Assembly (NCBI GenBank): GCA_963834415.1
Contig: CAWIBP010000004.1
Span: 7,077-71,076 of the forward strand
Length of the DNA: 64,000 nt
Direction of reading: 5' to 3'
From: an uncultured Actinomycetes bacterium
GTDB lineage: Bacteria; Actinomycetota; Thermoleophilia; Gaiellales; JALYLC01
Shown: positions 13,350 to 27,871 of the stretch, piece by piece
Position numbering within the stretch: position 1 is the first letter of the stretch
Layout: every line of letters starts with the position of its first letter
Notes under the pieces: model-generated
Database searches by the model: none
What the model was told of the DNA's origin: nothing
What the model saw: only the letters and a program-made list of their open reading frames with translations
Program-made: the position numbers and the translations under genes

Positions 13350-14365
13350 ATGGGAGCACGGATACCGGCAGTCGAGGTCGCGAGCGTCGCCGTCTCGTTC
13401 GGCGCGACGCGCGCGCTCGACGGCGTCGACCTGGTCGTCCCCGCGGGCACGGTGCAGGGTCTGCTCGGGCCGAACGGCGCGGGCAAGACCACCCTCGTGC
13501 GCGTGCTCGCGACGCTGCTGCGCCCCGAGGCCGGCAGCGCGCGGGTGTTCGGCTGCGACGTCGTGCGCGACGCCACGCGCGTACGCGCGCTGATCGGCCT
13601 GGCCGGCCAGTTCGCCGCCGTCGACGGCACCCTCACCGGCCGCGAGAACCTCGAGCTGGTCGGCCGGCTCTACCGCCTCGGCCGCAAGGAGGCGAAGCTC
13701 CGCGCGAGCGAGACGCTCGAGCGCCTCGCCCTGACCGACGCGGCCGACCGCGTGGTGCGGGGCTACTCGGGCGGCATGCGCCGGCGCCTCGATCTCGGCG
13801 CCAGCCTCGTCGGCCGCCCGCGCCTGCTGATCCTCGACGAGCCGACGACCGGCCTCGACCCGCAGTCGCGCAACGACGTCTGGGCGTTCATCCGCGAGCT
13901 CGTCGAGGACGGCACCACCGTGCTGCTGACGACGCAGTATCTCGACGAGGCCGACAACCTCGCGGGGCACATCGTCGTGATCGACCACGGCAGGGTGATC
14001 GCCGACGGCACCCCGCGCGAGCTCAAGGCCCGGCTCGGCGGCGACGTCCTCGAGCTGCACCTCGAGGACGCGGACGCGCTCGCGCCGACCGCCGCGGCGC
14101 TCAGCGGCATCGGCAGCGGCGAGCCGAGCATCGACCGCGCCGACCTGCGCATCACGTTGCCCGTGCACCAGGGCGCGAGCGATCTGATGAGCGCCGTGCG
14201 CCGGCTCGACGAGCAGGGCATCGTGCCGAGCGACGTGAGCCTGCGCCGCCCGTCGCTCGATGACGTCTTCCTCGCGCTGACCGGCCGGGGACGACGCCCG
14301 ACGAGCCCGCGGCCGGACCCGCGCCGCCGCAGGGCCGGCGCGGCCGCGGCGGGGACGCGGCATGA
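13350..14365 (+). CDS. ABC transporter ATP-binding protein, DrrA family (3' end frameshifted)
   Basis: GPNGAGKTT; YSGGMRRRLDL; LILDEPTTGLD; LLTTQYLDEAD; RRPSLDDVFLALTG. Confidence 0.93.
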
Positions 14366-15162
14366 GCGCCGCCGGGAGCGACGACCTCCCGCCCGCACGG
14401 CTCCCGGCCTCGGCCGCGTTCACCGACGCGCTCGTGATCGCGCGCCGCAACCTGCTGACGATCATCCGCACGCCGCAGCTGCTCGTCTTCTCGACGATCC
14501 AGCCGGTCATGTTCGTGCTGCTCTTCCGCTTCGTCTTCGGCGGCTCGATCAGCGTGCCGACCGGCAACTACGCGAGCTTCCTGCTGCCCGGCGTGTTCGT
14601 GCAGACGGTCGTGTTCGGCAGCACCACGGCCGCGGTGGCGCTGGCCTACGACCTCAAGGGCGGCATCATCGACCGCTTCCGCTCGCTGCCGATGGCGCGC
14701 TCGGCGGTGCTCGCCGGTCGCACCGCGGCCGATGCGGTGCGCAACCTCTTCGTGATCGTGCTGATGGTGCTCGTGGGGTACGCGGTCGACTTCCGCTTCG
14801 AGGGCGGGGTGCTCGGCGCACTCGGCGCGATGGGCATCGCGCTGCTCTTCGGCTACGCGTTCTCGTGGTTCTTCGCGCTCGTCGGCATGCTCGTGCGCGA
14901 TCCCGAGACCGCGCAGGTGGCCGGCTTCGTGCCGCTCTTCCCGCTCGTCTTCGCGAGCTCGATCTTCGTCTCGCCGGCGACGATGCCGTCGTGGCTGCGG
15001 GCGTTCGCCGAGCACCAGCCGATCACGATCGTCGCCGACGCCGTGCGCGGGCTCTCGCTGGGCACGGCGACGACCTCGGACGTCGTCACGGCGCTGCTCT
15101 GGATCGCGGCCATGCTGCTCGTGTTCGCGCCGCTCGCGACGTGGCGCTACCGCAAGGGCTAG
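14362..15162 (+). CDS. ABC-2 type permease, DrrB family
   Basis: QPVMFVLLFRFVFGG; GIIDRFRSLPMARSAVLAGR; TMPSWLRAFAEHQP; about 6 TM segments. Confidence 0.93.
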   Translation: MSAAGSDDLPPARLPASAAFTDALVIARRNLLTIIRTPQLLVFSTIQPVMFVLLFRFVFGGSISVPTGNYASFLLPGVFVQTVVFGSTTAAVALAYDLKGGIIDRFRSLPMARSAVLAGRTAADAVRNLFVIVLMVLVGYAVDFRFEGGVLGALGAMGIALLFGYAFSWFFALVGMLVRDPETAQVAGFVPLFPLVFASSIFVSPATMPSWLRAFAEHQPITIVADAVRGLSLGTATTSDVVTALLWIAAMLLVFAPLATWRYRKG

Positions 15163-15187
15163 ACGATAGTGAGTCTCGGCTACCATC

Positions 15188-15646
15188 GTGGCCGTGAGCT
15201 CTCACGTGGATCCCGGCTGGCGCGCGCACGCGCAGGCGACGCTCGAGCGCGAGGGCTTCCGCGCCGGTGCGGCGCGCGGGCGCGTGGTCGACGCGCTGGC
15301 GCAGAAGGACTGCTGCGCGACGGCTCAGGAGATCGCCGACGAGCTGCGCGCCGACGACGCCCGCGTGGGCATCGCAAGCGTCTACCGCGCGCTCGAGGTG
15401 CTCGACCGGCTCGGCCTCGTGCACCGGCTCGACGTCGGCGACGGCACCGCGCGCTACGAGGCCGCGCATCCCGGCGGGGAGCACCACCATCACGTCGTCT
15501 GCAACAGCTGCGGGCGCGTCGAGCAGTTCTCCGACGACGGTCTCGAGCAGGCGATCGCGACGCTCTCGACGCGGCTCGAGTTCGCGATCGACCAGCACGA
15601 CGTCGTCATGCGCGGCACATGCCCGGCCTGCGCGGCGAGCGCGTGA
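15188..15646 (+). CDS. Fur family regulator, probably Zur
   Basis: VGIASVYRALEVL HTH; HHHHVVCNSCG; C-terminal GTCPAC; adjacent to a Zn/Mn ABC operon with a Zur-like box. Confidence 0.9.
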   Translation: MAVSSHVDPGWRAHAQATLEREGFRAGAARGRVVDALAQKDCCATAQEIADELRADDARVGIASVYRALEVLDRLGLVHRLDVGDGTARYEAAHPGGEHHHHVVCNSCGRVEQFSDDGLEQAIATLSTRLEFAIDQHDVVMRGTCPACAASA

Positions 15647-16017
15647 GCGACCATCCCCGCTACGTCGGCCGCGACGCCCGCTACGTGCCTTCGCCGTCGT
15701 CCGAGGCCCAGCCGCCGCTCGGGCCGGACGCCTTCTTCACGCTCGCGGAGTCGGCCGAGGCGCGCGACGCCGGAAGCGTGCCCCATGCGCGCTCGGCGAC
15801 GCAGATCACGCTCGATTGCGCCGTCGAGTGCGGCGCCGACCCGGCTGCGTACCTCGCCGCCTACGACGCGTGGACGCGCTATCCGAACCGGCTCGAGCGC
15901 ATGGTCACGCGCCCGGGGCTGCGACGCCGGCGCAGGGAGGATCTCGAGCAGCGCTTCGCCGCGGCGCTCGTGGAGCTCGGCCGCGAGATCCGCGAGCGGC
16001 GCGCCGCCGGCGCCTGA
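15643..16017 (+). CDS. hypothetical protein
   Basis: GTGA overlap with the Fur stop; 124 aa open frame with plausible codon use; no family recognised. Confidence 0.55.
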   Translation: MSDHPRYVGRDARYVPSPSSEAQPPLGPDAFFTLAESAEARDAGSVPHARSATQITLDCAVECGADPAAYLAAYDAWTRYPNRLERMVTRPGLRRRRREDLEQRFAAALVELGREIRERRAAGA

Positions 16018-16018
16018 T

Positions 16019-16852
16019 TCAGGCCGGCGCGCGGCGCCGCGTGAGATCGGCGCAGAGCGCCAGCAGGTAGCCCGCGACGAGGCACAGCGCGATCGACGCC
16101 CCGCCCGCCGTGCCCGCGTAGTAGGAGACGTACAGGCCGGCGGCCCCGCCGGCGATCGCGACGGCCACGCTCACGCGCACCATCGTCCCGAGGCGGTTCG
16201 TGAGCACGCGCGCGCAGGCCGCCGGTGCGACCAGCACCGCGACCACGAGCAGGCTGCCGAGCGCCTGGACGCTGACGACCACCGCGGCGGCCACGAGCAG
16301 CATCACGACCAGCTCGACGGGGCGCGGCGCGATGCCGATCGCGCGCGCCGTCGTGCGGTCGAAGCCGACCGCGAGCAGACGCTCGTGCAGCACCCACAGC
16401 AGCGCGAGCACGGGCAGCGCGATCAGCGCCGTGACGACGAGGTCGCGACGCGAGACCGCCAGCACGTCGCCGAACAGCAGCTCCTGGATGCCCGGAGGCG
16501 AATCGGGCATCAGCGCGAGCAGGGCGCCGAGCCCGAACGCGAACGTGACCACGACGCCCACGGAGGTGTCGCGATCGATGCCGCGCCGCTCGCCGACGGC
16601 GGCGATGCCGCTCGCGGCCGCCCCCGCGCCGACGGCGCCGCCCGCCACCAGCGGGAGCCCGAGCAGCGAGGCCCCCACGAGGCCGGGGAACATGCCGTGC
16701 GCGAGGCTCTCGGCGCTGTACGACACGCCGTACAGCAGCACCCAGCAGCCGAGCCAGCCGCCCACGACGCCGACGATCGCGATCTCGATCAACGCGTGCT
16801 GCATGAACGCCTGGCCCCAGGGCTCGCTGAGCCAGCCCCAGGGGTCAGACAT
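16019..16852 (-). CDS. Zn/Mn ABC transporter permease (ABC-3, ZnuB/MntB-like)
   Basis: AESLAHGMFPG; ELLFGDVL; VSVQALGSLLVVAVLVAPAA; strongly hydrophobic. Confidence 0.92.
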   Translation of the reverse strand: MSDPWGWLSEPWGQAFMQHALIEIAIVGVVGGWLGCWVLLYGVSYSAESLAHGMFPGLVGASLLGLPLVAGGAVGAGAAASGIAAVGERRGIDRDTSVGVVVTFAFGLGALLALMPDSPPGIQELLFGDVLAVSRRDLVVTALIALPVLALLWVLHERLLAVGFDRTTARAIGIAPRPVELVVMLLVAAAVVVSVQALGSLLVVAVLVAPAACARVLTNRLGTMVRVSVAVAIAGGAAGLYVSYYAGTAGGASIALCLVAGYLLALCADLTRRRAPA

Positions 16853-17621
16853 GGGCGTCGCCGTGATCGTGCTCGTGGTCGCAGTGGTGCGCGGGGAGGA
16901 TGCCGCGCGCCGGATGCCCGCCGGCTCCCGCCTCGACCTCGACGATCGCGCCGCCGTAGGTCGCCTCGAGGACCGGCGTCGTCAGCACCGCGGGCGGCCC
17001 GAAGGCGATCTGGCGACGATTGAGGCAGAGCACGCGATCGAAGCCGCGCGCCTGGTCGACGTCGTGCGTCGTCACGAGCACGCCGCGGCCCTCGGCGGCG
17101 AGCCGGTCGATCAGCGCGGCGAGCACCTCGGCGCTGGCGGCGTCCACGCCCGTGAACGGCTCGTCGAGCAGCACCAGCTCGGCATCCTGGACGAGCGCGC
17201 GGGCCACGAGCACGCGCTGGCGCTGGCCGCCCGAGAGCTCACCGAAGGCGCGCTCGGCGCGGTCGGCGAGACCGACCTCGGCGAGCGCCGCCGAGGCGAG
17301 CCGGCGCTCGGCACGCCCGGGCCGGCGCCACCAGGGCAGGCGCGAGACCGCACCCATCAGGGCCACGTCGAGCGCCGAGACCGGGTAGTCGAGCCGCGAG
17401 CGCTCGGTCTGCGGCACGACGCTGCAGCGACCGCCGAGCTCGAGCCGGCCGCCGAGCGGCGTCAGCTCGCCGAGCAGCGCGCGCAGCAGCGTCGACTTGC
17501 CGCCGCCGTTCGGGCCGAGCACGCCGAGGCGCTCGCCCGGCTCGACCGTGAATGCGAGCCCGTCGAGCACGGGCCGCCCGCCGTAGCCGACGGCCAGCTC
17601 GTGGGCGGCGACGAGCGTCAT
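16845..17621 (-). CDS. Zn/Mn ABC transporter ATP-binding protein with His-rich tail
   Basis: GPNGGGKST; LSGGQRQRVLVARAL; LLDEPFTGVD; C-term HHCDHEHDHGDAHV. Confidence 0.93.
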   Translation of the reverse strand: MTLVAAHELAVGYGGRPVLDGLAFTVEPGERLGVLGPNGGGKSTLLRALLGELTPLGGRLELGGRCSVVPQTERSRLDYPVSALDVALMGAVSRLPWWRRPGRAERRLASAALAEVGLADRAERAFGELSGGQRQRVLVARALVQDAELVLLDEPFTGVDAASAEVLAALIDRLAAEGRGVLVTTHDVDQARGFDRVLCLNRRQIAFGPPAVLTTPVLEATYGGAIVEVEAGAGGHPARGILPAHHCDHEHDHGDAHV

Positions 17622-19376
17622 CCGATGCCCGCGATCTCGCAGCCGCGCGCACCGCTCGTGAAGCCGCGCGTCATGGCGTCTGCATTCGCATGCTCCATCG
17701 CAAGATACGTCGCCCCGCTCGAGTCGCCCGGCCCGAGCGTGTCGCCGTAGAGCGTGTAGTCGGCGCGGGCACCCGTCTCGCGGGCGATCTGCTGCGCGAG
17801 CTTCTGGCTCAGCGAGCTCTCGGGGAAGACGGCGCGCACGCCCTCGCGCCGGACGAGCTTCACGAGCTCGGCGATCTCGCCGGCCGAGGACTGGGCCGCC
17901 GTCGTCTGCGACGGGATCACGGCGCCGATCACCTCGATGCCGTAGCGGCCGGCGAAGTAGCCGAACGCGTCGTGGTCGGAGACGAGCTTGCGCTGCGCCG
18001 CGGGCACGCGCGCGAGGCACGCCTCGATGCCCGCATCGAGCGCCTCGCAGCTTCGCCAGGTAGGCCGTCCGCATTCGCGCGGTAGGTCTCGGCGTGCGCG
18101 GCATCGGCGGCGATCAGGGCGTCGCGGATCGCCGCGACGGCGGCGATCGCGTTGCGCGGGTCGTGCCACCAGTGCGGGTCGTGGCGCGACGCCTCGTCGC
18201 CCTCGCTCTCGCCCGCGCGGTGCACGGGCACCTTCGCGCCCAGATCGACCACTGCGGGCGAGCCGCCCGCGTTCGCGATGACCGTGCCCATCCAGGCATC
18301 GAGACCGTCCCCGCTCGCGAGCACGACCGCCGCATCGGCGACCGCCTTGACGTCGGCCGGGCGCGGCTCGTACTCGTGCGGGTCGCTGTTGGGCTGCAGG
18401 ATCTGATGGACGTCGGCCGCATCGCCCGCCGACGGCGCGCGCCCAGTCGCCCAGCTGCGTCGTGGTGGCGACCACGTCGATGCCCGCGCTGCGTCGAGCC
18501 GCCGCCGCCACAGCCGCCGAGCGCGAGCGCGAGCAGGGCGGCCGCGCCGACGAGCGCCGCCCGTGTGCGCGCGACCGCGGCGATCTGGTGCCACGCGAGC
18601 GACACGACGAACGCCGCGCCGCCGAGCACTGCGATGGTCGGCCCGGGCGGGGTGTTGAGCTGGACGGAGAGCCACAGGCCGGCGATGCCGAGGACGGCCG
18701 CGAGCGCGACCGAGGCGAGCTGCCAGACGGGCAGGCGCTGCGTCCACAGGCGCACGGTCGCCGCCGGGACGATGAAGAGCGCGGCGGCGAGCAGCGCGCC
18801 GATCGCCGTCAGCGACGCGACGACCGCGAACGCGATCAGCACGAGCAGGACCGCGTCGGGCCACTGCGAGCGCAGCCCCATCGCACGCGCGGCGGCGGGA
18901 TCGAAGCCGCGCGCCAGCCAGCGCGGCCCGAGCGCGAGCGTGGCGGCGAGCGCGGCTGCGCTGGCGAGGCCCGCGAGCACGAGGTCGATCGTGTCGGTCA
19001 GCAGCAGGCTGCCGAAGAGCAGCGAGTCGACGTTGCCGCCCGACTGGTACACGTCGCTCGCGAGCACCACCCCGCCGGCCAGGGCCGCGACGAGCACGAG
19101 CGCGGTCAGACTGTCGTAGCCGGCACGCGGCCGGCGCGCCAGGCGCTCCACGCCGAATGCGAACACGAGCGCGGCGGCGAAGGCGCCGAGCGGCGCGGCG
19201 AAGCCGATGCCGTCGGCCAGCACGAGGCCGGGGAACGCCGCCGTGCCGACCGCGTGGGCGTAGAACGAGAGGCCGCGCATGACGATCCACGTGCCGAGCA
19301 GCCCGGCCGCACCGGAGAGCAGCAGCACCTCGAGCACGCCGCGCTGGACGAACTCCAGCTGAAAGGGGTCGAGCAC
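17618..19376 (-). CDS. apparent fusion of metal ABC permease and ZnuA/TroA-like substrate-binding protein, frameshifted in the SBP part
   Basis: Permease (YAHAVGTAAFPG, SLLFGSLL) runs in frame into LALALGGCGGGG. SBP motifs follow: VVATTTQLGDW, DPHEYEPRPAD, DPHWWHDP, HDAFGYFAGRYG. Confidence 0.8.
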
Positions 19377-19386
19377 GGGCAGAATC

Positions 19387-19408
19387 TAATCGATACTCAT
19401 TCCCATTA
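19387..19408. promoter_or_regulatory. Zur/Fur-like operator overlapping the -10 of the metal ABC operon
   Basis: AT-rich imperfect palindrome TAATGGGAATGAGTATCGATTA (minus strand) resembling actinobacterial Zur boxes. It overlaps TAGATT, which lies 6 nt before GTG 19376. Confidence 0.7.
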
Positions 19409-19470
19409 CAAGTGGGAACCACCACGCACCCTCTCCCCGACGGCGGCTCGGCCGGCCGGTATATTCCGGT

Positions 19471-19594
19471 GGCGCGGTGAGGGCCGCGCCCCGTCCGCGG
19501 GCAGGGCCGAGCCCACCCTCGTTCGCTCGGCGGTGCGCTGGATCCCTTCTTTCCAGCCCGATCGCGGACGACGGGCACGCAGGAGAGGAGGCCC
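19471..19594 (+). ncRNA. candidate structured cis-regulatory 5' leader RNA
   Basis: -10 TATATT at 19460-19465. Four perfect stems: 19471-77/19484-90, 19492-99/19563-70, 19506-12/19525-31 and 19537-42/19552-57. Loop complementarities are described under findings. Confidence 0.6.
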
Positions 19595-21000
19595 ATGACC
19601 ACGCCACTGCCCGCCAACCCGAGCATGGAGCAGCTGCGCAAGCAGGCCAAGGAGCTCGTGCGCGCGCGCGAGAAGCAGGCCCGGCCGCTGCGCCTGAGCG
19701 ACGCCCAGCGCGAGGTCGCGCGCGAGTACGGCTTCGCGAGCTGGCCGCGCCTGAAGGCGTACGTCGACCGCGTCTCGGCGCACGGCCCGCAGCTCGCGCA
19801 CGCCTTCGTCGACGACATCGGCTACTACGAGGAGCGCGCCGAGGGCCTGCGCAGCGTCGTCGCGAGCGGGCTCGCGAACGGCATCGCCGTCGTGCGCGCC
19901 CACCACCCCGCGCTCGCCGCCGCGCCCGAGGCCGAGGTGCGCGCGATCGGCGCCGCCGACGCCCGCCTCGTGCTCGCGCGCGAGCACGGATTCGAGAGCT
20001 GGCACGCCTTCCGCCGGCACGTCGGCGGCCTGAGCGAGAGCGGCGAGCCGTTCCGGCTCGCGTTCACGGCGATCGAGAGCCGCGATCGCGCGGCGCTCGC
20101 GACGCTGCTCGACCGCTTCCCGGGACTCGTCGCCGCGCGCGGCACCAACGGCAACGACCTGCTCGGCCTGGCCGCCGGAACGACGCGCGACCGCGCGATC
20201 GTGCGCGAGCTGCTCGCCCGCGGGGCGGATCCGAGCAGCGCCAACGACCGCGGCTGGACGGCGCTGCACCAGGCCGGCTACAGCAACGACGTCGCGCTCG
20301 CACGGCAGCTGCTCGAGGCGGGCGCGCGCACCGACGTCGACGGCCACGGCGAGGGCGGCACGCCGCTCGCCGCCGCGCTCTTCTGGGGCAACGTCGATGT
20401 CGCGACCGTGCTCGCCGAGCGCGGAGATCGCCCCGCGCAACCTGCGGATCGCCGCCGGCCTCGGCCGGCTCGACCTGATCGACGAGCTCGTGGGCGCCGA
20501 CGGGAGCCTCGGCGAGGCCGCCGGGCGCGGCGCGCGGCTTCTACCGGCCGCACACCGGCTTCCCGCTCTGGGCAGCCGTCCGGCGATCCGCAGGAGATCC
20601 TCGACGAGGCGCTCGTGTGGGCCGCCAAGAGCGATCGGGCGGACGTCATGGGCCGGCTCGTCGAGCTCGGCGCCGACGTCGACGGCGATCCCTACCGCGG
20701 CACGGCGCTGACCTGGGCCGCGGCGGAGCGGCCACGTCGAGTCGATCGAGCGCCTGCTCGCGCTCGGGGCCGACCCGAACCGGCGCGGCACGTTCGGCGG
20801 CCCCGAGCACGGCCAGGGCGTCACCGCGCTGCACCTGGCGGCGCAGAACGGCCGGATGAAGGCCGTGCGGGCGCTGCTCGCCGGCGGGCGCCGACCCGGC
20901 GATCGCCGACGATCTCTACGAGCGGGCCGCCCGCAGGCTGGGCCGAGCACGGCGGGCCACCACGCGGTCGCCGCTCTTCCTGCGCGCACGCGGTGGCTGA
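19595..21000 (+). CDS. ankyrin-repeat protein with duplicated N-terminal 'EQLRKQAK...ARE[YH]GFxSW' domain, frameshifted (3' end approximate)
   Basis: Strong SD AGGAGAGGAGG; LPANPSMEQLRKQAKEL..DAQREVAREYGFASW; second copy DARLVLAREHGFESW; ankyrin motifs GWTALHQAG, GGTPLAAA, GTALTWAA and GVTALHLAA. Confidence 0.85.
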
Positions 21001-21076
21001 CGCGGCCGCCCAAGCAGCGGGCGCGCGCCCGGCTTGGGGCTACGATGAATCGTCTGATGCGAAAGCCCAGAGCCTC

Positions 21077-22001
21077 TTGACCCCGCGCGTCGCCGCAGCA
21101 CCGTGTCTCCTACGGTGTCTTCGAGGTCACCGCCGGGCGCCCGGGCCTGCCCGAGGGCCCCGCGCTCGCCGAGGCGATCGCCGAGGGCGGGTACGCCGGC
21201 ACCGAGCTCGGCCCGCCCGGATACCTCGGCCGCGGCCGCGAGGTCGGCGAGCTGCTCGGCGATCACGAGCTCGAGCTCGTGGGCTCGTGCCTGCCGCTGC
21301 GCCTCGGCGCGCGAGGACGGCTTCGCGGAGGACCTGGGCGAGCTCGAGGGGGCGCTCGACCTGCTCGCCGAGGCCAGCGAGGGCCGCGAGCGGCCGGTCG
21401 TGCTGCTCTCGGACGCCGTCTGCGAGCCCGACCGCATGCGCCACGCGGGCGCGATCGAGGCCCACCGCGAGACCTGGCTCGGCGAGCGCGGCCGGCGCCT
21501 GCTCTTCGACAACGCGCACCGCGCGGCGGAGCAGTGCCGCGAGCGCGGGCTTCACGACGTCGTTCCATCCGCACGCGGGCAGCTACATCGAGAGCCCGCG
21601 CGAGGTCGACGCGCTGCTCGAGAACATGGACACCGGCCTGCTCGGCCTGTGCTTCGACGCGGGCCACTCGGCCTTCGGCGGCGGCGACCCGCTCGCGCTG
21701 CTGCGCGAGGCGGGCGAGCTCGTCAACCACGTGCACCTGAAGGACGTCGATCTCGACCGGCTCGCCCGCGTCCACAAGGAGCGCAAGGGGCTCGAGGACG
21801 CCCGGTCGTCGGGCGTCTTCTGCGAGCTCGGCACCGGCGGAGCGCGCGTCGGCGAGTGCCTGCAGCGAGCTGCTCGACGCCGGCTACGACGCCTGGATCG
21901 TGGTCGAGCAGGATCGCGTGCTCGCCTCCGGCGAGCCGTTCGACGACGTGCTCGAGTCGGCCGAGCGCAACCGCGAGTGGCTGCGGGAGCGCGGCCTGTG
22001 A
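21077..22001 (+). CDS. IolE-like sugar-phosphate isomerase/epimerase (myo-inosose-2 dehydratase-like TIM barrel), frameshifted
   Basis: AAAP.SYGVFE; GYAGTELGPPGYL; FHPHAGSYIE; LCFDAGH; HVHLKDV; FCELGTG; WIVVEQD. Confidence 0.8.
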
Positions 22002-22957
22002 GCGCGCGCGAGACGGCGGCGCGGCTCGGCCGCCTGCGCGGGCTCGACATGCTCAGCGACGCGCGCGGCATCTTCGCGCTCGCGGCCATCGACCACCGCG
22101 ACGCGCTCGGCGTCGCGTTCGAGCAGGCCGGCTTCCCGGCGCCGGCGCCCGAGCGGATCGCCGAGCTCAAGGTCACCATCGCGCGCGCGCTCGCACCGCA
22201 CGCGACCGGCCTCCTGATCGACGTCGAGCTGGGCGCTCCGGCGATCGCGCTACGGCGCGGCCGGCCCGTGCGGCGTCGTCGTGCCGCTCGAGGCGCAGGG
22301 CTACGAGGACGTCTCGGCCGGGCGCGTGACGACGTTCCTGCCCGGCTTCTCGCCCGCGCTCGCCCGCACGCTCGGCGCGACCGGCTGCAAGCTGCTGCTG
22401 CCCTATCGCCCCGACCACGAGGCCTCGGCCGCGCGCCAGGACGCGGTCGTGCTCGAGGCGCGTCGCGGGCTGCCACGCCGAGGGCCTGCCGCTGATCCTC
22501 GAGCCGATCCTCTACCAGCTGCCCGACGAGTCGGCCGACGACTTCGCCGCGGCGTTCCCGGCGCTCGTCGTCGCCACCGCGACGCGCCTGCAGCCGCTCG
22601 GGCCCGACATCCTCAAGGTGCAGTTCCCGCGCGACGACCGCGGCGACGAGGTCGGCCTGGTGCACGCAGCTCGACGAGGCCTGCGGCCGCACGCCGTGGG
22701 TGCTCCTGGGCGGCGGCGGCGCGCCCGAGGTGTTCGCGCGCGACCTGCGCATCGCCTGCCGCGCAGGCGCATCGGGCTTCATCGCCGGGCGCACGCTCTG
22801 GGCCGGCGTGATCGGCGACGACGACGACACCGAGACGTGGCTGCGCCGCGTCGGGGTGCCGCTGCTGCACTCGCTGCGCGACATCGCGCAGAGCGGGCGC
22901 TCGTGGCGCGAGCGGGCGGGCGCGGTCGACGCGCCGCCACGCGACTGGTTCAGCTAG
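21998..22957 (+). CDS. class I aldolase, tagatose-bisphosphate/sulfofructose-phosphate aldolase (LacD/YihT)-like, frameshifted
   Basis: FALAAIDHRDAL; ATGLLIDVELG; GCKLLLPYRPD; LILEPILY; DILKVQFP; PWVLLGGG; GASGFIAGRTLW. Confidence 0.85.
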
Positions 22958-23448
22958 CGGAAGCCCGGCGGCCCGAGGATCTCGATGCCGAAGCGCGCCG
23001 CGGCCGCGACCAGCGCGCCCATGTCGGGCGGGCCGTCCGGCGGAGGCGGCAGCGTCAGGGCCTCCGCCGGCACGCCGGCCTCCAGCACGAAGCCCTCGAA
23101 GCCGGCCGGGTCGGTGCCGAGCAGGAAGCGCGCCTGCGGCGTGACGACGTCGAACGTGTGCGGGATCCCGGCGCGGGCCGTAGACGAACGATCCGGCAGG
23201 CGCGGCGATCACGGTGCCGCCGACCCAGAACGCCATCTCGCCCTCGAGCACGTAGAACCACTCGTTGTCGTCGTGGTGGACGTGGAGCGGCGCGCCCGGC
23301 CCCTGCGGGCAGACGGCCTCGATCAGCGTGAGGCCCCCGCCGCTCGTCGCGGCCGAGGCCTTGATCGTGATGAGCTGGCCGAGGAACCAGAGCGACTCGC
23401 CCTCGCCCGGGCGCAGGGCGATGGGCTCGATGGCGCAGCGTCGGGCAT
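22954..23448 (-). CDS. cupin protein (quercetin 2,3-dioxygenase-like), frameshifted
   Basis: GESLWFLGQLITIKA; PLHVHHDDNEWFYVLEG; GIPHTF; RFGIEILGPP. Confidence 0.85.
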
Positions 23449-23509
23449 CTGAGCTTCCTGTCGAGTCGATGGCACGGCTGCTCCGAGCGCGCTGCTCGCG
23501 CCGCCGACG

Positions 23510-24511
23510 CTACACGTTTCGCGAGGGCCGACCGCGATGCCCGACTGCCGCGACTGCTGCAGCGCGAGCGTCGCGCGCAACGCCGCCGCGGCGTCCGAGG
23601 GGCGCGCCGCGTCCGGCACGGGGCCGCCGGCGATCGCGGCCGCGAGCGCGTCGATCTGGCGGGCGAGCGCGTCGAGCACCACGTCGTCGGTCGGCGGGAG
23701 CACCTCGCGGAAGCCGTCCTCCTGGCGCACGAGCAGCGCGCCGGCGCCGTGCGCCTCGCAGATCAGCGAGCCGCGCTCGCCGACGATCTCGCTGCGCACC
23801 AGGTCGGCGTGCACCGGGCTGCGGGCGAGGTCGAGCGAGACCGGCTGGCCGCCGGCCAGCATGAGCACGGCGGCGAGCGAGTCGACGTCGCCGACCGCGG
23901 CGATCTCGCTGCTGGTCGGCGCTCCGCGCGCGAATGCCTCGACGACGGGCGAGCCGCACAGCCAGGCCGCGAGGTCGCACTCGTGGATTCCGCAGTCGAC
24001 CTCGATGCCGCCGCTGACCGCGGGGTCGCCGAACCCCGGCGAGAGCGGCTCGGCGCCCCACTGCGCGAGCCGCAGCATGCGCGGCGGCGCCGATCGCGTC
24101 CTGCGCGAGCAGCCGGCGCGCCTCGCGGTAGGGCCAGGCGTGGCGGCGCCAGAAGCCGACGTGCAGGCGCGAGCCCGCGGCGGTCGGCCTCGGCGGCGAG
24201 CCGCATGTCGGTCTGCGGGTCGAACGTCAGCGGGCGCTCGCAGAGCACGTGCTTGCCCGCCCCGAGCGCGGCGGCGACGAGCGCCTCGTGCCGGAGCGTC
24301 GGCGCCGCGATCACGACGGCGTGCACGTCGTCGCGCCCCAGCGTCTGCTCGAGCTCGGCGTCGACCGGCACGCCGGCCGCGCGGCCAAGGGCGCGCGGCC
24401 GCGGGCGACGGGTCGCAGATCGCGACGCAGCTGCACGCGCCGGGCGCGCGGCAGCGCGCGCAGGTGCAGCGCACCCATGCGGCCCGCTCCGACGATCGCG
24501 AGGCCGGTCAC
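23510..24511 (-). CDS. Gfo/Idh/MocA oxidoreductase (IolG/inositol 2-dehydrogenase-like), frameshifted
   Basis: LAIVGAGRMGALH; AVVIAAPTLRHE; GKHVLCERP; SGGIEVDCGIHECD. Confidence 0.8.
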
Positions 24512-24588
24512 GGGCGCACCCCGTGGAGCCGCTCGATCGCGGCATGGCCTTCGTCGTCGCAGAGCACGGCGATGAGCTCCCTGCTCAT
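24508..24588 (-). CDS. 26-aa ORF coupled to both neighbours (small protein or deletion remnant)
   Basis: MSRELIAVLCDDEGHAAIERLHGVRP; ATGA overlap with the iolC stop and GTGA overlap with the oxidoreductase start. Confidence 0.4.
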   Translation of the reverse strand: MSRELIAVLCDDEGHAAIERLHGVRP

Positions 24589-25523
24589 GTGGCGAGCAGC
24601 GCCCGGACCTCGTGCTCCTCGGGCATCGCGTCCGCGCACAGCAGCCGCGAGGCGACGATCGCGCCCGCCGCATTGGCGAAGCGCACGCACTCGGCGGGCG
24701 GCCAGCCGGCCAGCAGCCCGTGGCAGAGCGCGCCGCCGAAGGCATCGCCGGCGCCGAGCCCGCACACCACCTGCACGCGCAGGCCCGTCACGACCTCGCG
24801 CTCGCCGCGGCGTCGCGACGAGCACGCCGTCGCCGCCCTGCTTGACGATCGCGAGCCCGCAGCCACGCGCGAGCAGGGCGTCGGCGGCGGCCTGCGGGTC
24901 GTCCGTGCCGACACTGATGCGGCACTCCTCGCGGTTGCCGACGGCGTTCCCGGCGAGCTCGAGCGCGGCGCCGATCACGGCGCTCGCCTCGGCCTCGTCG
25001 CGCCAGAACACCGGGCGGTAGTCGAGGTCGAGGATGGTCGTCGCGCGATCGCGGTCGCCCATGAGCGCGAGCGCGGTGCCGCGCGAGGGCTCCTGCCGAG
25101 AGCGCCGATGCGCTGATCCAGAGGATCGCGGCGTCGTGCACGGCCTGGCGGTCGATGTCGATCGAGCCTGATCTGCATGTCGGGCGCGGCGGGCTCGCGG
25201 TAGAAGAGGAGCTGCGGATCCTCCGGCGGGTCCATGGCCGCGAAGGCGAGCGGCGTGCGCAGCGTGGGGTGCGTGCCGACGAAGCGGACGTCGACGCCGA
25301 AGCGGTCGGCGAGCGCCTCGCGCACGTACTCGCCGAACGGGTCGTCGCCCACGGCGGTGATGACGGCCGCCCGGCGGCCGAGGCGTGCCGCGGCGACGGC
25401 GACGTTGGTCGGGCTGCCGCCGATCGACTTCGCGAACGTCTCGACCTGCGAGTAGCTCGCGTCCTGCTCGCGCGCGTAGAGGTCGACGCTGACGCGGCCG
25501 ACGGTTACCAGCTCGAGGCTCAC
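24585..25523 (-). CDS. iolC: 5-dehydro-2-deoxygluconokinase (PfkB family), frameshifted
   Basis: VGRVSVDLY; FAKSIGGSPTNVAVAAARLG; LFYREPAAPD; LDLDYRPVFW; GLGAGDAFGGALCHGLL; ANAAGAIVASRL. Confidence 0.9.
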
Positions 25524-25575
25524 GCTCCGGATCTTGGCGGATGGGCGGCGCACGCGCGCCCGCAGGCCGCGCCGA

Positions 25576-26483
25576 TCAGCCGAGGATGAAGGCGCCCGGG
25601 GGCGGCTCGACCCACGCCGAGGAGCGCAGCGCCGTGATCAGCGCGTCGGCCTGCGGCGAGAACTCGACGCGCGTGTAGGCACCGAGACGGCGGAAGATCG
25701 GCGGGTCGGCGACGCGGACGTGCTCGCGCAGCTCGGAGGGGACGATGTTGGCCGGCACGATCGCGACGCCGACGCCCGCCGCCGCGAGCCGCGCGGCGGC
25801 CTCGACCTGGGCCGTGCGCACCGCATCGCGCGGCGCGAACCCGGCGCTCGCGCAGATCGCGACGACGATTCCGTGCAGCCCGTGCGTGGGCGGGAAGAGG
25901 ATCCAGCCGTCGTCGGCCAGCGAGTCGAGCCGGATCGGCGCGGGCGAGGCGAACGCCCGGTGCCGCCGGCCGACGATCACGACGAACGACTCGTGGCCGA
26001 GGAAGACCGCGGGCCCGTGGCGGCCCGGCTGCGGCATCGGGCCCGATCGCGACGTCGGCGATGCCCGCGTCGAGCGCATCCTCGAGCACGTCGCGATGGG
26101 GGAACTCGTGCAGGCGCACCGACATGCCGGGGTGGGCCTCGCACATGCGCTGGATCGCGGGCGGGAGCAGGCCGACGGCGAGCGAGAGCACCGTCGCGAT
26201 CTCGATCTCGGCGAGCTCGAGGGTGAGCGCGGCGCGGCCGGCGCGCTGCGCCCGCTGGGCGGCGAGGAGGGCGCTGCGCGCCTCGGGCAGGAACGCGCGG
26301 CCGGCCGGGGTCAGGCGCGCGCCGCGCGGCAGGCGCTCGAGCAGCGGCCCGCCGACCTCGACGCTCGAGCAGCCGGATCTGCTGCGAGATCGACGGCGCC
26401 GCGACGTGCAGCCGGTGGGCCGCCGCGCGGAACGAGCCGTCCTCGGCGATCGCGAGCAGGTACTCGAGCTGCCGGAGGTTCAC
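25576..26483 (-). CDS. LysR family transcriptional regulator, frameshifted
   Basis: VNLRQLEYLLAIAEDGSFRAAAHRLHVAAPSISQQIRLLE; substrate-binding domain lies in ORF 25576..26079. Confidence 0.92.
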
Positions 26484-26497
26484 GTCTCGCGGAACGA

Positions 26498-26510
26498 TAG
26501 GCAATGCCTA
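26498..26510. promoter_or_regulatory. LysR T-N11-A operator
   Basis: Perfect palindrome TAGGCA-A-TGCCTA between divergent LysR and the Mo-hydroxylase operon. Confidence 0.7.
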
Positions 26511-26570
26511 ACGCAGCGGACGGGAATTGGTCATTGTTCTCTCGATGGCAGCGGCGTAGCATCGCCCGGG

Positions 26571-26999
26571 ATGACACGCACACCTGCTCCGAACGCCGAC
26601 GATGACGGGTTCGCGGACTGGTCGCCCGAGCTGCGCGACGAGCTCGCGTCGCACACGTCGAATCCGCTCGTCGGCACGCGCCTCCTGCGGGAGGACGCAC
26701 GCTCCCGGGTCTGGGAGATCCGCCTCGCGCCCGGCGAGCGCCTCGCCTTCCACCGCCACGTCCTCGACTACTTCTGGACGTGCGTGAGCGGCGGCGACGC
26801 GATCAGCCGCGACGGCGAGGGGAACACCCACGGCCGGCACTACGAGGTCTCCGAGACGCGCGCGCTCTCGTTCGGCGAGGGCGAGTCGATGATCCACGAC
26901 CTCGTCAACTCGGGCACGGAGGACATCGTGTTCACCACCGTCGAGTTCCTCGACAGCGCGAACGCGCCGCTCCCGCTCGCGGTCAGGGCGCGGGCATGA
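26571..26999 (+). CDS. cupin-fold protein
   Basis: VGTRLLRED.RSRVWEIRLAPGERLAFHRHVLDYFW; IHDLVNSG; ATGA overlap with the next gene. Confidence 0.8.
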   Translation: MTRTPAPNADDDGFADWSPELRDELASHTSNPLVGTRLLREDARSRVWEIRLAPGERLAFHRHVLDYFWTCVSGGDAISRDGEGNTHGRHYEVSETRALSFGEGESMIHDLVNSGTEDIVFTTVEFLDSANAPLPLAVRARA

Positions 27000-27871
27000 A
27001 GGCGGCGCCGTTCGCCTACCACGCGCCCGCGACGATCGACGAGGCGGTCGCCCTGCTCGAGCCGGGCGGCGACGTGCGGGTGCTGGCCGGCGGCCAGAGC
27101 CTGATGGCGCTGATGAAGATGCGCCGGCGCGAAGCCGCGCGCGCTCGTCGACATCAACGGCGTGGCCGGCCTCGACGCGATCGAGGAGCGCGACGGCGAG
27201 CTCGTCGTCGGCGCCCTCGTGCGCCAGCAGACGCTGCTCGACGACCCGCTCGTGGCGCGCTCGTGGCCGCTCATCCGCGAGGCGCTCGGCTACGTCGGCT
27301 ACCGCGCGACGCGCCACCGCGGCACCGTCGGCGGCTCGCTCGCGTTCGCCGCCGCCTGGGCCGAGCTGACCGCGGTCGCCGTCGCGCTCGACGCGAGCAT
27401 CGACGCGCCGCTCGCAGCGCGGCACGCGCACGATCGCAGCGCGCCGACTTCTTCCTCGGCCCGAACGAGACCGCGCTCGAGGCCGACGAGCTGCTCACCG
27501 CCGTGCGCTTCCCCGCGCCCGCGGCGCGCACGGGCTCGGCCTTCCACGAGGTCAGCGCGCGCTACCGCGACTACGCGCAGGTCGGCGCCGCAGCCGTCGT
27601 CGAGCTCGCCGCCGACGGCACGTGCAGCGCGGCGACGCTCGTGCTGCTGCGCGTCGCCGACACGCCCCACCGCGCCGAGATCGACGCGCTCGTGCGCGGC
27701 ACCGCGCTCGACGAGGCGACGCTCGCAGCCGTCGTGGCGAAGCTCGGCGAGCTCGATCCCCCGGACGACATCGAGGTCTCCGGCAGCTACCGGCGGCGCG
27801 TCGCCGGCGTCCTCGCGCGCCGCGCGCTGCTGGACGCCGCCGCGCGCGCGGCCGCGGAGGAGGCAGCGTGA
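26996..27871 (+). CDS. molybdenum hydroxylase FAD-binding subunit (CoxM-like), frameshifted
   Basis: MKAAPFAYHAPATIDEA; LAGGQSL; RHRGTVGGSLA; SGSYRRRVAGVL. Confidence 0.9.
   Translation: MKAAPFAYHAPATIDEAVALLEPGGDVRVLAGGQSLMALMKMRRREAARARRHQRRGRPRRDRGARRRARRRRPRAPADAARRPARGALVAAHPRGARLRRLPRDAPPRHRRRLARVRRRLGRADRGRRRARREHRRAARSAARARSQRADFFLGPNETALEADELLTAVRFPAPAARTGSAFHEVSARYRDYAQVGAAAVVELAADGTCSAATLVLLRVADTPHRAEIDALVRGTALDEATLAAVVAKLGELDPPDDIEVSGSYRRRVAGVLARRALLDAAARAAAEEAA

Follow-up and report, generated by a model that had tools for sequence, protein, structure and literature searches.

The leader upstream of an ankyrin-repeat gene in the window (the whole 64,000-nucleotide stretch of DNA analysed here) was described in the initial annotation as a four-stem translational switch, either a riboswitch or the target of autoregulation by the encoded protein. 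This raises two questions: whether the structure is real, and what it responds to. We found that the leader is a conserved, covarying 5' RNA present in several bacterial phyla; it resembles a protein-responsive translational leader, yet it belongs to no family tested. Judging from sequence comparisons, the RNA and the small domain encoded at the start of the downstream gene are likely to form an uncatalogued portable control unit, and a protein-RNA module of either sign appears probable. Our main reading, with a probability of roughly 0.4, is that the domain binds the core of its own leader and activates translation. The elements of the locus are given in Table 1.

Table 1. Elements of the leader and of the gene that follows it, numbered along the window.
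Element	Position	Strand	Basis or remark
-10-like hexamer TATATT	19460..19465	+	sequence; putative start site near 19471-19472
P1 hairpin GGCGCGG/CCGCGCC, loop UGAGGG (19478-83)	19471..19490 (arms 19471-77/19484-90)	+	pair probability 0.99-1.0
Conserved P2, 2-bp helix 19490-91/19499-500, loop exposing GUCCGC (19493-98)	19490..19500	+	
Conserved P3, triloop hairpin GGGC-cga-GCCC, preceded by a 3-base purine-rich linker	19504..19514	+	
Pseudoknot strand CCCUC, partner P1-loop GAGGG (19479-83)	19516..19520	+	
Variable linker, 14-32 nt across homologues	19521..19543	+	no conserved sequence
Anti-SD strand, partner 19582-19591	19544..19554	+	
Conserved P4, hairpin GCCCG/CGGGC, loop with GCGGAC (19564-69), the GUCCGC partner	19556..19576	+	
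SD GGAGAGGAGG and AUG (19595-97)	19582..19597	+	sequence
N-terminal three-helix domain, copy 1, Glyoxalase_8-like, candidate RNA-binding	19595..19774	+	PF20066 match
Second domain copy, diverged, without the N-terminal LP-P-L part	19832..20029	+	profile E 8.8e-9, positions 17-74 of 75
Ankyrin repeats, frame broken repeatedly past ~20430	20105..21000	+	Pfam Ank families

Conserved fold of the leader

All motifs named in the initial annotation, including TATATT, stems P1 to P4, CCCUC and the SD at 19581-89, were found in place. The fold that was drawn from them (P2 at 19492-99/19563-70, P3 at 19506-12/19525-31 and P4 at 19537-42/19552-57) is the MFE structure as long as the SD is excluded, with pair probabilities of at least 0.97 up to 19572. 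It does not survive inclusion of the SD: the probabilities of the original P2 and P4 are then 0.24, and a competing hairpin that conceals the SD is favoured by ~1 kcal/mol. The suggested pairing of the P4 loop with the SD holds at 8 of 9 positions, with two G-U pairs, and is adjoined by a register in which 9 of 9 positions pair (19546-54 with 19582-90). Stability relative to shuffled sequences, a check proposed at the outset, was not decisive for one sequence, with z between -1.2 and -2.9 depending on the span: -1.23 for 19470-19600 (22 of 200 shuffles were equally good), -2.9 for 19471-19571 and -1.5 for 19471-19597. Because stability does not clearly set the window leader apart from shuffled sequences, the case depends on homologues.

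A pattern derived from the two most constant helices was found at no fewer than 121 metagenome loci; five chance matches, two edge-cut loci and three duplicates were removed before 128 loci were parsed. The conserved order consists of P1, a 2-bp P2 with GUCCGC, three mostly purine bases, the triloop hairpin P3, one base and the knot strand, followed by the linker, the anti-SD strand, P4 with GCGGAC in its loop, the SD and the AUG. In alignment A3 (63 hand-picked leaders, aligned by sequence only), 88.6% of cells are paired, compared to 38-52% in slid registers, and there are 197 double-change cells, compared to 74.9 after shuffling. Since relatives inflate such counts, independent Watson-Crick double changes were counted on a tree. 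The observed and expected numbers were 18 and 1.3 for the knot between the P1 loop and CCCUC, 17 and 2.1 for the anti-SD helix, 11 and 0.1 for the P3 triloop hairpin, 2 and 0.1 for the conserved P4, and 1 and 0 for the conserved P2. The first two results bear out the loop-loop pair and the anti-SD helix that had been proposed from the sequence of the window.

Individual elements are conserved to different extents. The P1 hairpin is present in 126 of 127 parsed loci and the P3 triloop hairpin has 98.8% of its cells paired; for the conserved P4 the figure is 98.4%, a value partly fixed by the search pattern. All five pairs of the P1-loop knot vary on both sides, and its energy is -5.3 kcal/mol with its own partner versus -3.3 with swapped partners. 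The corresponding values for anti-SD and SD are -14.5 and -10.3 kcal/mol, the own partner being better in 115 of 118 leaders. The outer pair of P2 is C-G in 111 and A-U in 12 of 127 loci, with more variants in domain-first loci. As the GUCCGC/GCGGAC helix is fixed by the search pattern, its variants were sought in the domain-first loci, where compensatory changes, picked by eye, occur in five (one subfamily contributes two of these). Near-invariant positions are numerous in the core. Of 125 homologues, 111 have a TAnnnT hexamer no more than 22 nt upstream of P1 (at 4-8 nt in 99), compared to 8 of 123 control windows; the position of this -10-like hexamer just upstream of P1 suggests that transcription starts at P1. 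A strict scan for promoters and terminators found none at the window leader, and a search for RNA sequencing runs likewise found none.

Comparison with homologues changes parts of the original drawing. P1, the P1-loop/CCCUC pair and the GUCCGC/GCGGAC core of P2 are kept, whereas the 7-bp P3 helix is found in 2 of 127 loci, the conserved element at its site being the triloop hairpin. The original P2 stem is a nested drawing of the second loop-loop helix. P4 had been taken for the main carrier of the anti-SD; the anti-SD strand instead extends a different hairpin, GCCCG/CGGGC, and the original P4 is one of the weak, patchy, lineage-level linker hairpins that compete for the anti-SD. The linker contains the 3' arm of the original P3 and the 5' arm of the original P4. 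The leader is conserved across at least five phyla, and its conserved, covarying 5' structure covers the ribosome-binding site (RBS), as in protein-responsive autoregulatory leaders.

Several further observations concern the surroundings and the variants of the leader. A divergent metal ABC transporter cluster with a Fur-family gene at its end occupies 15188-19376, and ahead of it lies a sequence (19389-19408) that we take to be Zur/Fur-box-like. The latter is ~50 nt from the -10 of the leader; it is identical in L001, L023 and L025 and absent from L002, L003 and L021. A diverged domain subfamily (L179:1330-1472 and L209) has a diverged leader with an altered loop-loop pair. A full cassette and a truncated leader occur in viral contigs (L018:182-270, minus strand, and L019:1471-1612), and genome G061 contains a deletion-fused leader (L183:427-522), the deletion having joined the leader to the middle of its gene.

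The leader and the N-terminal domain

The two helical-domain copies ahead of the ankyrin repeats were confirmed by profile matches. The domain, called uncharacterised in the initial annotation, is catalogued: its residues 8-59 align with the N-terminal third of the Pfam family Glyoxalase_8 (PF20066; E 6.5e-7, 29.9 bits versus a curated cut-off of 23.7), the match covering only model positions 5-56 of 143. Matches to this model at E<=0.1 were obtained for 36 of 84 domain members. Alignment A2, which includes 84 of 88 domains selected with a pattern in which G46 and W50 are fixed, has K or R at position 15 in 84/84 members, at position 19 in 83/84, at position 43 in 93% and at position 54 in 83%. 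The AlphaFold2 model (pLDDT 86) contains helices at 11-25, 34-44 and 50-61. Its best structural match, DUF1244 (3fyb), is weak (Z 5.3, rmsd 2.7, 57 aligned; Foldseek E 1.4); comparison with solved structures, by fold and by sequence, yielded nothing clear, and a protein atlas search yielded only unnamed clusters, under 0.9. The profile matches 10,523 protein clusters (50% identity), and the domain is N-terminal in 147 of the 149 top matches. The link between RNA and domain described below, together with the conserved basic residues, suggests that the domain binds RNA.

Homologues of the window protein have 465 aa, and compared to one of them, P0003, the window gene has at least five frame changes past ~20430. 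Many genes at 14000-27000 are split by single-base indels, resembling an unpolished long-read assembly. Since the neighbouring genes are also fragmented, the frameshifts are probably assembly errors.

The association between leader and domain was assessed from both sides. Starting from the RNA, we considered those pattern matches, among the matches listed, that have at least 150 nt downstream: the domain lies within 45 codons downstream in 109 of 119, compared to 0 of 113 control frames. The 10 misses among the matches listed, inspected by eye, comprise 5 chance matches without P1/P3 and 5 real RNAs followed by broken or short frames. Starting from the protein, a GTDB search gave 16 loci. The leader is present at all 12 that have a complete N-terminal copy, which come from Actinomycetota, Acidobacteriota and Planctomycetota; a Lentzea locus with an internal-type copy only has no leader, and the matches L014-L016 proved spurious. 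Whole genomes were also searched independently, once with the protein profile and once with the RNA model, and the results coincided at individual sites. In four genomes, 18 of 20 domain genes have the long form, as found in the window, directly upstream, one has a short form (see below), and one is a coupled second gene in an RNA-led operon; three of these loci overlap with the 12 GTDB loci. Among 251 Actinomycetota genomes, 13 have any domain match, with the leader at 10 of 11 full domains (two by weak model matches) and at none of three partial or internal ones. The leader precedes 6 of 7 genes (one by eye) in an additional 60 genomes from the phylum of G061, and it precedes 10 of the 11 plasmid or chromid loci fetched, out of 13 matches, 3 of these in the short form.

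With 109 of 119 among the matches listed, the leader stands only before genes or operons that encode this domain, the exceptions being L175 and L208, which have full domains and no leader, and L184. There (L184:4319-4466, minus strand, and L165, G062:C84), the RNA heads a two-gene operon in which gene 1 begins exactly at the would-be end of the domain, and gene 2, overlapping the stop of gene 1, has the domain and no leader. The genome of the window itself (73% GC, 51% complete) contains a second domain gene with the same leader, and cultured carriers include Gemmatirosa, Azospirillum, Methylosinus, Variovorax, Burkholderia, Nonomuraea and Pseudomonas. Genome G062 (contigs C10, C37 and C52) has 11 domain genes, including three tandem pairs; every gene is preceded by a separate promoter-like sequence and by a leader variant that differs from the others. 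The C-terminal parts of 59 proteins are ankyrin (43), DUF1835 (2), WD40, beta-lactamase, Clp_N, FliG_C and LRR (one each) or unassigned (9), and further domain proteins have VOC C-terminal parts; these functions share no pathway. The near one-to-one link between RNA and domain favours autoregulation over a riboswitch, the two options that the initial annotation had left side by side.

A search of four plasmid records with PF20066, for canonical Glyoxalase_8 genes, gave no match, and a weak RNA-model match in G337 was rejected as it falls in coding sequence. A more distant domain (18 bits) was observed at L190:1486-2346 and in H25-H28, on plasmids of Shewanella, Alteromonas and Pseudomonas; no leader was detected at L190.

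The short form, found in VOC genes and their rhizobial relatives, keeps P1, the P1-loop knot and P3; its P2 is an ordinary 4-5-bp hairpin, and it is devoid of P4 and the anti-SD. The core is thus what stays constant between the two forms, and the 3' part serves as a platform that can be exchanged. The VOC genes provide a natural control within one family of one order (30 of 65 matches were fetched): the short core is present at 22 of 22 genes with the domain and at 0 of 8 without it. Strict parsing identified 17 of the 22 cores (with a background of 1 in 693 windows) and a relaxed pattern the other 5; all are directly behind a sigma-70-type promoter. An example is the VOC gene RL_RS31485 on pRL11 of the laboratory symbiont Rhizobium johnstonii 3841 (L267:300-403); among the short forms of cultured rhizobia (L267, L194, L196, L197 and L268), several have no clear SD.

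Predicted control of the ribosome-binding site

For the RBS window (14 bases before the AUG), pairing with the core strands exceeds that of shuffled tails in 17 of 19 distinct short forms (8.7 versus 4.6 nt). According to the pairing model, the core knot and RBS sequestration are mutually exclusive in the short form; because both use the same strands, the RBS would be released by anything that stabilises the core. For the long form, the predicted default state is OFF, with the SD buried by a helix of ~12 bp. The predicted cost of opening the SD has a median of 10.3 kcal/mol for 119 leaders, compared to 6.5 for 137 SD-led genes of the window's own genome; for the window it is 11.1 kcal/mol, a value reached by 11% of the 137 control genes. 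When the SD is forced open in a nested model, 71 of 118 long forms contain the GUCCGC/GCGGAC helix, compared to 23 in the MFE structures; as the folding model cannot hold pseudoknots, this exclusion is partly built in and only suggestive.

These results suggest the following mechanism. The SD helix of the long form would hide the RBS by default; the three-helix domain would bind the pseudoknotted core of its own leader; and binding would free the RBS, such that the protein switches on its own translation. The 2-bp P2 of the long form would depend on the loop-loop helix with the P4 loop, and clamping of this helix might strain or delay the SD helix. The C-terminal domain could gate the module as a sensor. 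Given that the short-form core excludes RBS sequestration and that the long form is predicted to be OFF by default, activation appears somewhat likelier than repression.

Several results weigh against activation. A universal anti-anti-SD was sought in the purine run after GUCCGC, the P1 loop and the linker, and none was found. The purine run (own partner -5.64, swapped -5.75) and the P1 loop (-4.03 and -4.12) were rejected as candidates, and pairing between linker and anti-SD is weakly partner-specific (-2.9 versus -2.3; own better in 63 of 118). The notion that the linkers are tuned to fold was also rejected, their stability being no greater than that of shuffles. The linker is never shorter than 14 nt, although the search pattern allowed shorter spacings, and this floor would allow all helices to form together. 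The loop-loop helix and the SD helix may therefore coexist, which would fit repression, and the precedents described below repress. A module of either sign also faces the objection that RNA and domain are adjacent on the DNA, and that joint inheritance of a cassette comprising promoter, leader and 5' end would produce co-occurrence as well.

The strongest alternative, although we consider it unlikely, is the same module with the opposite sign: the domain would bind the fully folded leader, with both knots and the SD helix, and a ligand or partner of the C-terminal part would titrate the protein away. The co-occurrence and covariation evidence is identical for this alternative, and the 14-nt linker floor is expected if the loop-loop and SD helices form together. 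Titration, as by rRNA for ribosomal proteins, requires no allostery and might suit a portable module. Precedents exist in uS4, uS15 and bL20, which act on pseudoknots (available text of PMC10931766), and in ANTAR proteins, which repress translation in mycobacteria (available text of 10.1101/660928). Conversely, the SD helix is predicted to be strong without protein, leaving little for a repressor to add, and the core knot of the short form occupies strands that RBS sequestration uses as well.

A second alternative, which we regard as improbable, is a riboswitch for a small molecule or ion, or a leader for an unlinked protein: the core would be the aptamer, its ligand would turn expression ON, and the domain would ride along. 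The constant core with many near-invariant positions, the exchangeable 3' platforms, the two knots and RBS sequestration agree with this alternative, and exchangeable platforms, knots and RBS sequestration are typical riboswitch anatomy. Yet the downstream functions have no common pathway, no Rfam riboswitch matches, and the VOC family loses the RNA exactly where the domain is lost (0 of 8).

Slightly less probable still is a third alternative, in which the complex of RNA and domain serves a non-switching purpose, such as holding the new protein on its mRNA so that it is assembled or located there, or in which a stress-sensing leader and an unrelated N-terminal cap are simply co-inherited. Physical linkage alone yields co-occurrence, and up to 11 paralogues per genome each have a promoter and a leader; on the other hand, domain loss is accompanied by RNA loss, and the partner specificity of both the anti-SD helix and the RBS pairing in the short form suggests that initiation is controlled. 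Stems arising by chance in 73% GC DNA, an option left by whole-leader folding z values of only -1.2 to -1.5, have a negligible probability, as the structure is kept in at least five phyla with compensatory changes far above controls, and the shuffled and tree-aware covariation counts refute them.

If activation by the domain holds, any sensor, scavenger or repeat protein fused behind it would gain self-amplifying, signal-gated or bistable expression, and the system would be a rare self-activating translation loop; a module of either sign would assign a function to a large and misnamed domain family. We are rather doubtful of the more specific claim of an undescribed one-component translational activator, in which a 55-residue domain binds the knotted leader, paralogues are possibly orthogonal and the COG3860 RNA (see below) is possibly a distant form. 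With a protein of 60 residues, a leader of 80-130 nt and many natural variants, the system is readily tested and might provide synthetic control parts.

Comparison with known systems

The leader is a multi-phylum structured RNA absent from Rfam 15. The initial annotation had recognised no Rfam family, and indeed positions 19200-19800 gave 0 matches at E<=10. At E<=1, searches of 20 loci detected only a group II intron piece elsewhere (L189:229-346, minus strand, D1-D4, 105 bits, 1 kb upstream of the Methylosinus cassette), and the short form gave only a chance miRNA match (E 8.4). A hairpin loop that pairs with a downstream strand is also found in the Pistol ribozyme and in the ZTP, SAM-II and preQ1-II riboswitches; none of these has an Rfam match to the leader, and their gene contexts are unlike that of the leader.

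The cis-regulatory COG3860 RNA (RF02940, 54 positions) is similar in one respect: in its consensus, the GCAG loop of the 5' hairpin has a possible partner in an ACCUGC further downstream, an arrangement comparable to the P1-loop knot and ACCUG strand of the leader. The RF02940 covariance model gave no score on the window leader, 20 other loci and one short form, and no match at leader sites in four genomes (top 150 candidates per genome). COG3860 RNA members that pass the cut-off were sought without success in 41 genomes belonging to the phylum of G062 and in 8 plasmid records, and a pattern search of viral contigs yielded none either.

With regard to the protein, only the first third of the Glyoxalase_8 model fits the domain, and the family owes its name to C-terminal parts fused to it; the Pfam entry line mentions no RNA role, and none was found in the literature. 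A published description of the leader-domain pair was not found in the literature, mostly without subscription papers, and a term search of the main text of PMC5737381 gave no match. The available text on COMPASS cluster #630,527 (10.64898/2026.10.21.760802) describes a covarying leader that precedes glyoxalase genes among others. That cluster, compared here by description only, also precedes flavin monooxygenases and NmrA-like proteins, which are absent here, and the part of the text available does not mention ankyrin; the cluster tables may contain the leader motif.

The CAT domain gave no match to the domain in Pfam scans, and homology to ANTAR (PF03861) was rejected at the level of profiles (hhalign probability 0.54%, E 0.11 versus 22 ANTAR domains; absent among Pfam matches). 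In both ANTAR and CAT (BglG/LicT), a small RNA-binding domain is joined to varied sensor domains. ANTAR is a three-helix domain, like the domain analysed here, and according to the available text acts on translation in actinobacteria; its target RNA consists of two hairpins, whereas the leader is knotted and the domain N-terminal.

Parallels are also found in leaders of ribosomal protein genes (E. coli uS4/alpha, uS15/rpsO and bL20/rpmI, and mycobacterial uS15), in which the product of the downstream gene acts at initiation on a leader with a pseudoknot. To our knowledge, autoregulatory leaders respond to ribosomal proteins or to dedicated regulators, whereas the RNA-binding part here resembles a portable tag. 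The available text of PMC10931766 describes the encoded protein as acting on such leaders at initiation, with repression in all pseudoknotted cases covered. A leader found only before one protein is taken to have that protein as its ligand, and ribosomal protein leaders rarely span phyla (available text of PMC7247131), as the present leader does. In contrast to the ribosomal protein leaders, the present leader has as its candidate ligand a small domain that is joined to proteins of unrelated kinds, and regulation may have the opposite sign.
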